A stretch of DNA of 64,000 nt from Mobula hypostoma. Its lineage: Eukaryota. Under the pieces are notes generated by a model. That model did not search any database and had not been told where the DNA came from. It worked only from the letters and a program-made list of their open reading frames with translations. Below, piece after piece: positions 36,147 through 39,100 of this stretch. The DNA is taken from positions 7,130,001 through 7,194,000 of the forward strand of contig NC_086108.1 of the NCBI RefSeq assembly GCF_963921235.1, read 5' to 3'. The translations under genes and the position numbers were made by a program. How positions within the stretch are numbered: position 1 is the first letter of the stretch; each line of letters begins with the position of its first letter.

Positions 36147-39100
36147 GGGTGCCCAGAGAACCCAGGTGGGAAGCGACACTACCCAGTGATAACAAGGGAG
36201 GCAGAGGAGGAACCCATTGTTCAGGTTGTGTTAGAAGGGCAGCTGACACCAATGATGATAGATACTGGAGCCACGTATACTTGCGTACAGCCGCAGTATG
36301 CCCTTCACCTTCCCATGTCAGGAAAATTCATTAAGACTGTAGGGTTCTCGGGAAAAACACAGTTGACACAATGTACAGCTCCAGTGAGATTAAGGATGGG
36401 CAGCAAAGGAATAGTTTTGCTGATATTAGTGTCCAAAGGAACTCCGGTGAATTTGCTAGGCAGAGATGCCCTATTAAGACTAGAATTAAAATTAGAATGT
36501 ACCAGAAGTGGGTTGAGTGTGGAAAGAGTAAATGCACAATTACTAGTGCGGAAAGTCAAGAAAGCTAATGTCTTTTGGATAGGAGACATAGAAGATCAGA
36601 TCTGGGAAACCTGGGAAAAATGGAAAAAGGGTGTGCAGGCTATATTGCCCCAGGCCGTAGCGCCCAAATCCGAGTTACATTGCACAGTGATTTTTGACTA
36701 AACTCAGAACAGAGAGATGGTACAGGGAGGCAGGTAACCGGCAGCACCTAAGAGGAGAAGCTATAAAAATTGGGAGACAAGGGGCAGCCCTGCAAGTCAG
36801 GTGGAATACTTTCTTGGAGAAATGGTACAGGATACCGGAAGCTGAGCCCCACATAACGCTGCTAGTAAATGAGGGATATCAGACTAAAGACCTAGGACCC
36901 TTAGTAAAGCACGCTGGAATCGTGGCAGTGTGGAGGAAAATTATGCCACAGGTGTGGGTATTGGGAGACAACGACTACTTTAAAATAGAGGTAGATATAG
37001 ATATGGTAGGAACAGCAAAGGAGGTTGAAGTAACTCCCCAACCACACCTGACGTTATTGGGAAAGGAGGAAGGCCAGCAGAGAGATAACAAGCTGGATAG
37101 GTTACCATCTATCCTGTGGTCACAACATGACACGGATGTAGGGAAAATAAGAACAGCTAGTCCGGTAGAAATAAAGCTGAAAAAGGGAGCAGTTCCACCC
37201 AGGAGACCACAATATCCCCTGAAACCAGAGGCAGAAGAGGGAATAGCGCCAACGATACAGGGGCTACTGGAGGCAGGAGTATTTAAGGACAGACAGCCCA
37301 TGTAATACCCCACTGTTACCTGTACTTAAAGCGGATAAATCTAAATGGAGACTGGTGCATGACTTGCGAGCGGTGAATGAGGTAGTGGAGGACTGGCCAG
37401 TGGTAGTTCCCAACCCACACACGCTCTTGACTAATGTTCCACCAGAGGCAGACTATTTTTCGGTGATTGATTTGTGTTTGGCTTTTTTCAGCGTTCCCCT
37501 GGCAGATCAGTGTCAGTACCTGTTTGCATTTACATACAGAAACAACCAGTATACCTACACTAGAATGCATCAAGGATTTAAACATTCACCACATGTATTT
37601 AATCAAGTGTTAAAGGCGGACCTAGAGGGCATATCGTTGGAAAGTACATTGATACAGTATGTGGATGATTTGTTGATTTGCTCTGAAAGTGAGGGACAGT
37701 GTGAACAGGATACCATAACCCTTTTAGAGAGACTGGCGCATGGAGGCCATAAGGTATCTAGAAAGAAGCTGCAATTTTGCAAGCAACAGGTGGAATACCT
37801 AGGTAGAGTGATATCCAAGGGAGCGAAGGCGATAGCGCCGGATCAAATTGAGGCTATAACTAAAGCTCCCAAGCCCCAGACAGTGAGACAGATGATGACG
37901 TTTCTGGGACTGACAGGATATAGTTCAGATTGGATTGGGGAATATGCTGAAATTGTAATGCCACTAAGGAAAATAATGAAGGAAGCAGGACATACAAGCT
38001 TGGAGAGTAATCTACAGTGTGGAAACAGAGAGGTTTTAAAAAGAGCAATGGAGATCCCATACAGCACTTTTAGATCTAATAAAAGTGCTGATGAAACCTA
38101 AAGCACTGGCTATAGTAAAATGCCAGGCACATAAAAAAGGAAACGATACAGTAACAAAGGGAAATCAAGCTGCAGATGAAGCAGCCAGGAAAGCGTCAGG
38201 GTGTACATTCGTTGTCAGTGCACCCCAGGTAAGTCTAGAGCTGGCACCTATAGTAGAGGACCTAATTGAAATACAAGGAAAGGCAACTTTGGCAGAACAA
38301 ACTCTGTGGAGACGAAGGGGGGGGGGGTGCCAAGCAAATCCCAGAAGGCCTATGGACCACGGAAGATGGCCTACTGATAGCTCCCACCCCTTTACTGACC
38401 ATCCTGATCTCAGAAGCACATGGGATGGATCATTGTGCAAGGGGGGAAGTAATAAGAAAAATAAAAAAGGATGGATTTTGGTCGCCTTATTTACAGGCTT
38501 CAGTAGACCATGTGTTGTCACAGTACGAGGTATGTGTGCAGAATAATAATCGGAAAGGAATTACAACCCCAATAGGTCATATACCCGTACCTGAAGGGCC
38601 ATTTAAACACCTAGTGATTGACTATGTAGACATGATAAAAACAGTAAGAGGGAAAAGATACATGTTGATGGTAATCGACAGATTCAGCAGATGGGTAGAG
38701 GCAGTACCCTCGAAAGATCAAGGGGCAGGAACAGTGGTGAAATTCCTGACAAACGAAGTGATCCCAAGGTTTGGGATACCGACAGAAATTAGCTCAGACA
38801 ATGGTTCAGCTTTCATTCAAAAAGTGGTCAAGTTAATACTGCAAGCACTGAGAATAAAGCAGAGATTTGGATGTGTGTATCACCCTCAGTTGCAGGGTAT
38901 GGTGGAAAGAATTAACGGGACCTTAAAAGCCAAACTAAACAAAATCTGTACAGATATTAAACTCAACTGGGTCGATGCACTACCGTTAGCATTAATGAGT
39001 TACCGCATGCAGACTAATCGGATGACGTGTCTAACACCGCATGAAATGCTAACCGGAAGGCCCATGCCAGTGCCCCAGTGCAGAGGACCATATAAAGGGC

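Follow-up and report, generated by a model that had tools for sequence, protein, structure and literature searches.

Domains of the 2H phosphoesterase type have been described in fish retroviruses, and the passages returned by our literature searches treat them only in passing. One such passage, in a review, mentions 2H domains in fish retroviruses (PMC9503650, citing Mazumder et al. 2002), and another attributes extra reading frames for 'a CNPase' or for macro domains to some fish epsilon-like endogenous retroviruses (ERVs) (PMC4977317, citing Basta et al. 2009). CNPase itself, according to passages in two further papers, hydrolyses 2',3'-cyclic phosphodiesters to 2'-phosphates (PMC4643303, PMC3290555). 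No functional test of the fish retroviral 2H/CNPase domain was found in the searchable literature, which lacks most subscription journals, and the text of a zebrafish ERV paper (PMC8672886) contains neither 'CNPase' nor 'phosphodiesterase'. Here we analyse a 64,000-nucleotide stretch of the genome of the ray Mobula hypostoma (NCBI RefSeq assembly GCF_963921235.1, contig NC_086108.1, positions 7,130,001 to 7,194,000 of the forward strand), called the window below and numbered from its first nucleotide. It contains a 9.4-kilobase (kb) provirus on the + strand (32614–42016), whose protease–reverse transcriptase (RT) region is the subject of this study. A first-pass annotation of the window had placed a 2H phosphoesterase between protease and RT and had stated that such domains were described in fish retroviruses, and both statements hold. 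The domain kind is already known in fish retroviruses, and the ERV lineage of the window is a new member.

On balance, we favour the reading that the window holds a decayed copy of a real CNPase-type 2H module of ~160 residues in pol, whose working form would be a virion-carried 2',3'-cyclic phosphodiesterase. What is added here is the placement of the domain on the CNPase branch, the size of its family and the conservation of its motifs, its fixed position, an estimate of selection, its relatives in rays and the finding that Pfam misses it. While the existence of the domain will not surprise a specialist, the breadth of an accessory retroviral enzyme is the notable point.

Predicted fold of the domain between protease and reverse transcriptase

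By direct reading, the protease motifs DTGA (36261–36272) and GRDAL (36459–36473) lie in frame 0 and the RT motif LWSQHDTDVG (37114–37143) lies in frame +1. The two histidine motifs are located exactly where the first-pass annotation had put them: H-C-T (36678–36686) within LHCTVIFD (36675–36698), and H-I-T (36850–36858) within PHITLLVN (36847–36870). The distance from GRDAL to LWSQ is 640 bases in the window copy, compared to 651 bases (217 codons) in sister copies of the element. The folded extra domain takes up ~161 of these codons (36561–37032, equivalent to model residues 1–161 of sister copy L014), and the ~170 extra codons proposed earlier are a fair estimate. The break that had been reported near 36700 is also real but consists of two lesions rather than one: an in-frame TAA (36699–36701), common to only 1 of the 29 other copies compared, and an 11-base gap at 36711/36712 relative to all 29, whose placement is ambiguous by a few bases and which shifts the frame by +1. 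The window domain is read in frame 0 up to the two lesions and in frame +1 afterwards, and its HxT motifs are spaced by 172 bases, compared to 183 bases (61 codons) in the 29 sister copies. Because the stop and the 11-base gap both fall between the two motifs, the window copy is unable to make the domain.

The motif pair by itself is suggestive. The pattern Hx[TS][LIVMF] occurs 162 times in the 122,002 six-frame residues of the window and, at this frequency, the chance of finding at least two occurrences within 170 residues is P ~0.02. The case is carried by conservation and fold.

Structure prediction against 2H folds had been proposed for a repaired frame; we instead used naturally open sister frames and left the window copy unrepaired. 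An AlphaFold2 model of the open sister copy L014, built from an alignment with 56 relatives, had a mean predicted local distance difference test (pLDDT) score of 93.6 and a predicted template modelling (pTM) score of 0.87, with residues 1–161 confident and the following linker low. Two of its strands (residues 41–46 and 101–106) start at the two HxT motifs. When the model was searched against PDB with Foldseek, all listed matches to rank 49 were CNPase catalytic domains or goldfish RICH (best E 1.4e-6), followed by a fungal tRNA-ligase kinase/cyclic phosphodiesterase (CPD) structure. VIA-align, run on Foldseek's candidates, gave the highest score to mouse CNPase (Z 17.3; root mean square deviation (rmsd) 2.4 over 160 residues, model residues 1–161 on CNPase 165–378), followed by human CNPase (Z 16.7), goldfish RICH (Z 13.5), the fungal tRNA-ligase kinase/CPD (6u05; Z 12.9) and LigT-type enzymes (Z 8.3–9.2).

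A second structure search, independent of Foldseek and covering 48,161 PDB cluster representatives, again returned CNPase first (Z 15.9, rmsd up to 2.7), with the next family at Z 9.1. The lower-scoring matches were bacterial and archaeal cyclic phosphodiesterases (CPDases) and LigT (Z 8.0–9.1), phage Acb1 (7.8), Usb1 (7.7), mouse hepatitis virus (MHV) NS2 (7.7), plant CPDase (7.4), AKAP18 (7.4), rotavirus VP3 (6.8–7.1) and the penguinpox cGAMP phosphodiesterase (6.3). All 21 chains with Z ≥5 were 2H or putative 2H-type proteins, and the next chain scored 4.2. The domain is therefore predicted to have the two-lobed alpha+beta 2H fold, of the CNPase structural type, with the CNPase catalytic domain as its closest structural neighbour over essentially the full domain length. 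The AKAP7/NS2/VP3 group is present among the structural matches at Z 6.8–7.7, compared to 15.9 for CNPase, and gave no match at the sequence level in our searches.

Several of the weaker structural matches are viral enzymes that cleave immune messengers, and they bring up a different function, in which the domain would destroy 2-5A or cyclic dinucleotides (such as 2'3'-cGAMP) and thereby shut down OAS–RNase L or cGAS–STING. Besides the scores of Acb1, NS2, VP3 and the penguinpox enzyme, this explanation draws on weak Pfam matches to Acb1 (E 0.005–0.057), on Acb1 entries among the matches in the structure database BFVD (E 0.02–0.09), and on the host genome, where at least three tandem genes have OAS1_C exons and the ligand-binding domain of STING is also encoded. 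However, CNPase lies ~7–8 Z units above those enzymes and aligns over 160 residues rather than 112–136, the Acb1 matches reach 13.6–16.9 bits, well under the 27-bit cut-off of that family (PF23474), and any 2H domain would be similar to those families at such a level. Relatives of the domain also come mostly from teleosts, which are not known to have OAS. We consider messenger destruction the main alternative, though an unlikely function, and the modelled fold favours CNPase-type action on 2',3'-cyclic phosphates, the third of the options offered in the first-pass annotation, over 2'-5' cleavage of the NS2/VP3/AKAP7 type. A place on the CNPase rather than the NS2/VP3 branch narrows the candidate substrates.

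The host OAS-like genes form a tandem cluster of at least three (G000:C78:31043513–31173778), in which one exon contains a stop; a weaker, stop-ridden OAS-like copy is found on C59.

Conservation, position and selection

At least 41 loci in the genome resemble the 641-base region at 91–96% identity, and 30 fetched copies, including the window copy, formed the comparison set. In 16 of these 30 copies the domain's 161 codons (483 bases) run through without a stop or an indel, and one of the 16 is out of the protease frame through an upstream 1-base gap. The first His is kept in 29 and the second in 27 of the 30 copies.

Selection was estimated, as the first-pass annotation had suggested, from the ratio of non-synonymous to synonymous change (dN/dS), using pairwise Nei–Gojobori values for all 435 pairs of the 30 copies and a codon bootstrap. 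The ratio was 0.70 for the protease (95% bootstrap 0.46–1.07), 0.49 for the 2H domain (0.33–0.77) and 0.41 for RT (0.31–0.58). A fourth region (RT–RNase H) was disregarded because its proportion of synonymous differences (pS 0.29) reflects misaligned, frameshifted copies. The domain is under purifying selection resembling that of RT, and this likeness to RT is the informative point.

Three of the ERV copies (L018, L021 and L027) lie inside 140 kb at G000:C36:142832484–142974890. L021 and L027 have near-identical sequence in the same orientation, suggesting segmental duplication rather than separate integrations.

Beyond this genome, we searched all of a set of 1.84 billion representative proteins with HMMER, using the sequence of a naturally open sister copy. 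This identified 161 related proteins at E ≤0.001 and 49 at E ≤1e-10, counted as clusters at the 50% identity level. A word-index homologue search (region 139–300, similar lengths) returned 2 proteins only, the index being coarse for a domain family, and a search of viral contigs with a single sister protein found no relative. Among the named relatives are two rays, Hypanus sabinus (72% identity) and Mobula hypostoma (93% over part of the domain), and the teleosts Hypomesus, Festucalex, Danio, Corythoichthys, Pelmatolapia, Pleuronectes, Antennarius, Perca and Hucho. The two rays, not the teleosts, are the closest named relatives of the window copy. Nearly all named relatives are annotated as 'uncharacterized protein', and the labels of the rest are generic or unrelated.

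Fifteen relatives were scanned with Pfam for their domain context, and none had a Pfam family over the domain itself. The retroviral protease (RVP) was found upstream of the domain in 11 of the 15, with only marginal matches in P0038 (E 0.009) and P0146 (E 0.006), and RVT_1 was found in 10 of the 12 longer proteins. Both flanks are present in P0048, P0038, P0097, P0111, P0146, P0079, P0069 and P0009; P0088, which has RNase H instead of RVT_1, was counted as the ninth. In P0049 and P0033 the RT is present and the protease is not recognisable by Pfam. The remaining proteins are a duplicated oddity (P0014), two that stop after the domain (P0001 and P0004) and one that consists of the domain only (P0002). 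In family members with context, the position of the domain is fixed between protease and RT.

Motif conservation was counted over the best 150 of the 161 relatives. The first His is kept in 107 of 117 covering representatives and its Thr in 109 of 117, while the second His is kept in 125 of 133 and its Thr/Ser in 126 of 132. HxT/S occurs twice in 86 of the 101 representatives covering both motifs, and the other 15 are without one motif, which is what decay of ERV copies would lead one to expect. When the query was aligned by MAFFT with 56 relatives of ≤420 residues, taken from 88 that span both motifs, the positions conserved at ≥90% were H40, T42, G78, A80, H101, L104 and G116 (57 sequences, ~27% mean identity to the query).

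A third HxT (HLT, 37045–37053) was considered as catalytic and rejected: it lies in the low-confidence linker and its His is kept in 14 of 37 covering representatives. The heptad around it is identical in 17 of the 30 genome copies, and the motif may neighbour a protease cleavage site releasing RT.

In the 15 polyproteins with both the domain and RT, mean pairwise identity is 0.32 for the domain and 0.46 for RT, and domain identity tracks RT identity with a Spearman coefficient of 0.81 across 105 non-independent pairs. This pattern would fit one old acquisition followed by co-divergence.

The faster evolution of the domain relative to RT could also be expected if its role were non-catalytic, as a spacer or as an RNA- or Gag-binding module such as a decoy related to host CNPase. 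Host CNPase is reported to block HIV-1 assembly via Gag binding, CNPase-type domains bind nucleotides and RNA, and a location between two enzymes could tolerate a spacer. However, conservation is highest precisely at the catalytic His and Thr/Ser of the two motifs, which is unexpected for a spacer or a pure binder, and dN/dS is 0.49; we judge this role improbable. More radically, there might be no real domain at all, just two chance HxT motifs in the long, fast-evolving linker of a decayed provirus, as the window alone could suggest with a motif pair at P ~0.02 and a broken copy without a Pfam match. The high-confidence model, the CNPase match at Z 17.3, the retention of the motifs across the 161-cluster family and the purifying selection refute this explanation and leave it next to no probability.

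The provirus and its insertion site

The window element is a gamma/epsilon-like ERV, because it has a pair of long terminal repeats (LTRs), a target-site duplication, Pfam matches to RVP, RVT_1, rve, MLVIN_C and TLV_coat, and an RT like that of Moloney murine leukaemia virus (MoMLV). The LTRs were delimited by local alignment (32610–33228 versus 41399–42016), in which 609 of 618 positions are identical, with 9 mismatches. The 5' LTR spans 32614–33228 and the 3' LTR 41399–42016 (+ strand, starts uncertain by ~4 bases), the latter with a purine-rich tract just before it. An 18-mer resembling a primer-binding site begins with TGG a few bases past the 5' LTR (33233–33250, by direct reading).

The gag region (33939–36143) is in frame 0, interrupted by stops (same-frame open reading frames (ORFs) 33939–34907, 35055–35960 and 35961–36146), and ends in a CCHC zinc knuckle; a Pfam scan of this region of the provirus found no gag family. 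Gag, pro and pol share one common frame, divided by an in-frame TAG at the gag/pro boundary (36144–36146, by direct reading), which is likely the natural gag terminator. The TAG is retained in sister copies, and in 13 of 19 + strand sister copies the protease-frame ORF begins at the equivalent position (locus position 1168). In gammaretroviruses pol is made via stop-codon read-through, and the arrangement here suggests that pol would be expressed in the same way, by read-through of the gag TAG.

Downstream of the TAG, the retroviral aspartyl protease occupies 36204–36494 (RVP E 8.7e-10, residues 20–116 of ORF 36147–36698), and in a sister copy it aligns with HIV-1 protease residues 7–98. A linker of ~20 codons (36495–36560) separates the end of the protease match from the first strand of the 2H model, and a second linker (37033–37113), which contains the third HxT and in which pLDDT drops to 70 and then 40, leads to RT. 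The RT follows at 37114–38101 (RVT_1 E 1.5e-27), and that of a sister copy has MoMLV RT as its top match among solved structures (E 1.6e-52). Alignment to MoMLV RT and HIV protease bounded the linkers and did not locate protease cleavage sites within them. Near 37285 a 2-base gap, present in 6 other copies as well, disrupts the RT frame of the window copy. Further downstream are the integrase (38266–39684; rve E 2.7e-16 and MLVIN_C E 2e-12) and env (39767–40906), which contains a single internal stop and whose transmembrane part is of the gamma type (TLV_coat E 2.3e-9 on 40454–40906). All these features are on the + strand. The pol frame changes at least 4 times, and the window provirus is dead.

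The element is inserted in a host 95-base satellite. One copy of TTAT lies to the left of the provirus, within a satellite unit (32610–32613), and another to its right, where the satellite array resumes (42017–42020). When the flanks were joined across a single TTAT, the result was an uninterrupted satellite unit (126 matches in the window compared to 0 in shuffles); this joined unit holds one TTAT, and TTAT is therefore the 4-base target-site duplication. The 95-base tandem repeats beside the LTRs had been considered as internal repeats of U3 and were rejected, as they belong to the host satellite hosting the insertion. The array takes up >11 kb of the window (32201–32613 and 42017–53235 on the + strand), with a short inverted block of this satellite further downstream at 58969–59469 (− strand). 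Long minus-strand 'ORFs' of 67 codons inside the array are a repeat artefact.

Possible function and relation to known systems

Under our preferred reading of the module as a 2',3'-cyclic phosphodiesterase carried in virions, read-through of the gag TAG would place the domain in a Gag-Pro-Pol polyprotein and thereby bring it into virions. On either side of the domain lies a flexible linker, of ~20 residues after the protease fold and of ~30–40 low-confidence residues ahead of the RT match, and the viral protease could cut at either to free the domain. The two His and their Thr would then hydrolyse a 2',3'-cyclic phosphodiester, without the help of a metal, to give a 2'-phosphate. Yeast-type tRNA-healing CPDases, like CNPase, convert 2',3'-cyclic phosphodiesters to 2'-phosphates. 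As to substrate and biological role, we infer that RNA ends or 2',3'-cyclic mononucleotides produced by host metal-independent RNases are the likely targets. The benefit might lie in clearing cyclic-phosphate products from the infected cell or the reverse-transcription complex, which could blunt danger signalling or condition RNA (the tRNA primer or the genome).

Several observations weigh against this reading. No Pfam family reaches its cut-off in the two halves of the window domain, three sister copies or the 57 aligned members. In favour of the reading, sub-threshold matches among the 57 are enriched in five 2H families (2_5_RNA_ligase2 in 4 members, LigT in 2, and CNPase, Acb1 and 2H-SAK in 1 each), with the single match to the CNPase family (PF05881) at E 0.011. 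Searches of PDB sequences with phmmer, using an open copy, and with the 57-sequence profile found no 2H protein; the matches obtained either arose by chance or came, via the flank, from the RT part of foamy-virus Pol. The family assignment therefore rests on predicted structure plus motifs, and identity to CNPase is only 11–16%. Moreover, similarity of fold leaves the substrate unfixed, the viral 2H enzymes that have been characterised degrade 2-5A or cyclic dinucleotides, and this host has OAS-like genes and STING. The dN/dS values mix selection during the viral phase with neutral decay after integration, among copies that share ancestry. Finally, the catalytic activity of retroviral 2H domains is putative, and packaging and release by the protease are steps deduced from the layout of the polyprotein.

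Profile alignment to the host CNPase exons placed PHVTL on SHITL and the Gly-rich strand before it on the corresponding CNPase strand (E 4.6e-4, probability 33%), and LHCT on LHCT (E 0.025), so that the two catalytic motifs of the window copy correspond to LHCT and SHITL of the host exons. These alignments are weak but are consistent with the structural superposition. Recent capture of the host CNP gene was considered as the origin of the domain and rejected on the basis of the 11–16% identity and of the two E values above.

The host CNPase exons themselves occur twice, ~180 kb apart and with identical scores (G000:C91:33776800–33781654 and 33955102–33961841; L031–L036), and within the former set the first two exons have the last one upstream of them. 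A tandem or segmental duplication may account for this, or else an artefact of assembly.

If the domain is a CNPase-type enzyme, a further and more tentative proposal is that an old and widespread clade of retroviruses of cartilaginous and bony fish brings it into the cell as a counter-defence, erasing the 2',3'-cyclic-phosphate RNA ends or 2',3'-cyclic nucleotides that host RNases or immune enzymes produce, ahead of any signalling or cell death. We regard this role as possible, though short of probable. An enzyme acting on such cyclic-phosphate or cyclic-nucleotide signals would extend viral 2H counter-defence to retroviruses and hint at a matching defence in fish hosts; it would be a retroviral analogue of NS2, VP3 and Acb1 with different chemistry and a different target.

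Compared to known systems, the domain is most like the catalytic domain of CNPase, sharing the fold over essentially its whole length (Z 15.9–17.3, rmsd 2.4–2.7) and two HxT motifs on equivalent strands. It is ~50 residues shorter, has 61 residues between the two His as opposed to 79 in CNPase, lacks the N-terminal kinase-like domain and the membrane anchor, and has a retroviral protease on one side and RT on the other. The 2H/CNPase domains reported from fish retroviruses belong to the same type of module as that of the window ERV and occur in viruses of the same type. In BFVD, the best structural match of the model was an unnamed viral protein of 1072 residues (E 1.4e-11, TMq 0.84, 24% identity), and proteins labelled 'envelope polyprotein' were matched in walleye epidermal hyperplasia virus 1 (E 1.9e-10, TMq 0.76) and walleye dermal sarcoma virus (E 1.1e-8, TMq 0.71); the BFVD entries matched are Q9WHI8, A4GTG3 and Q2VF30_1. 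In the window family the domain is part of pol and separates protease from RT; the walleye viruses have it in proteins labelled as envelope and, if these labels are right, the same module resides in a different polyprotein there.

NS2, the C-terminal domain of VP3 and AKAP7 share the 2H fold and the HxT/S motifs, and the viral ones among them antagonise a nucleotide-based host defence. In contrast to CNPase, they are much weaker matches (Z 6.8–7.7 over 112–136 residues), and 2-5A, their substrate, is a hypothetical one for the retroviral domain. Phage Acb1 and the poxvirus 2H cGAMP phosphodiesterase are likewise small viral 2H enzymes (Z 7.8 and 6.3). Unlike the retroviral domain, however, they come from DNA viruses as stand-alone proteins whose cleavage targets are cyclic oligonucleotides, and the Pfam matches to Acb1 are below cut-off. 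Extra enzymes in pol are rare among retroviruses, the textbook case being the retroviral dUTPase, an additional nucleotide-metabolising enzyme within pro/pol of some retroviruses. The 2H module is a second kind of accessory enzyme and a widespread one (161 clusters at the 50% identity level). Like dUTPase, it is an accessory enzyme inside the polyprotein and would hence be delivered with the virion enzymes, but the two differ in fold, chemistry, host lineages and position within pol.

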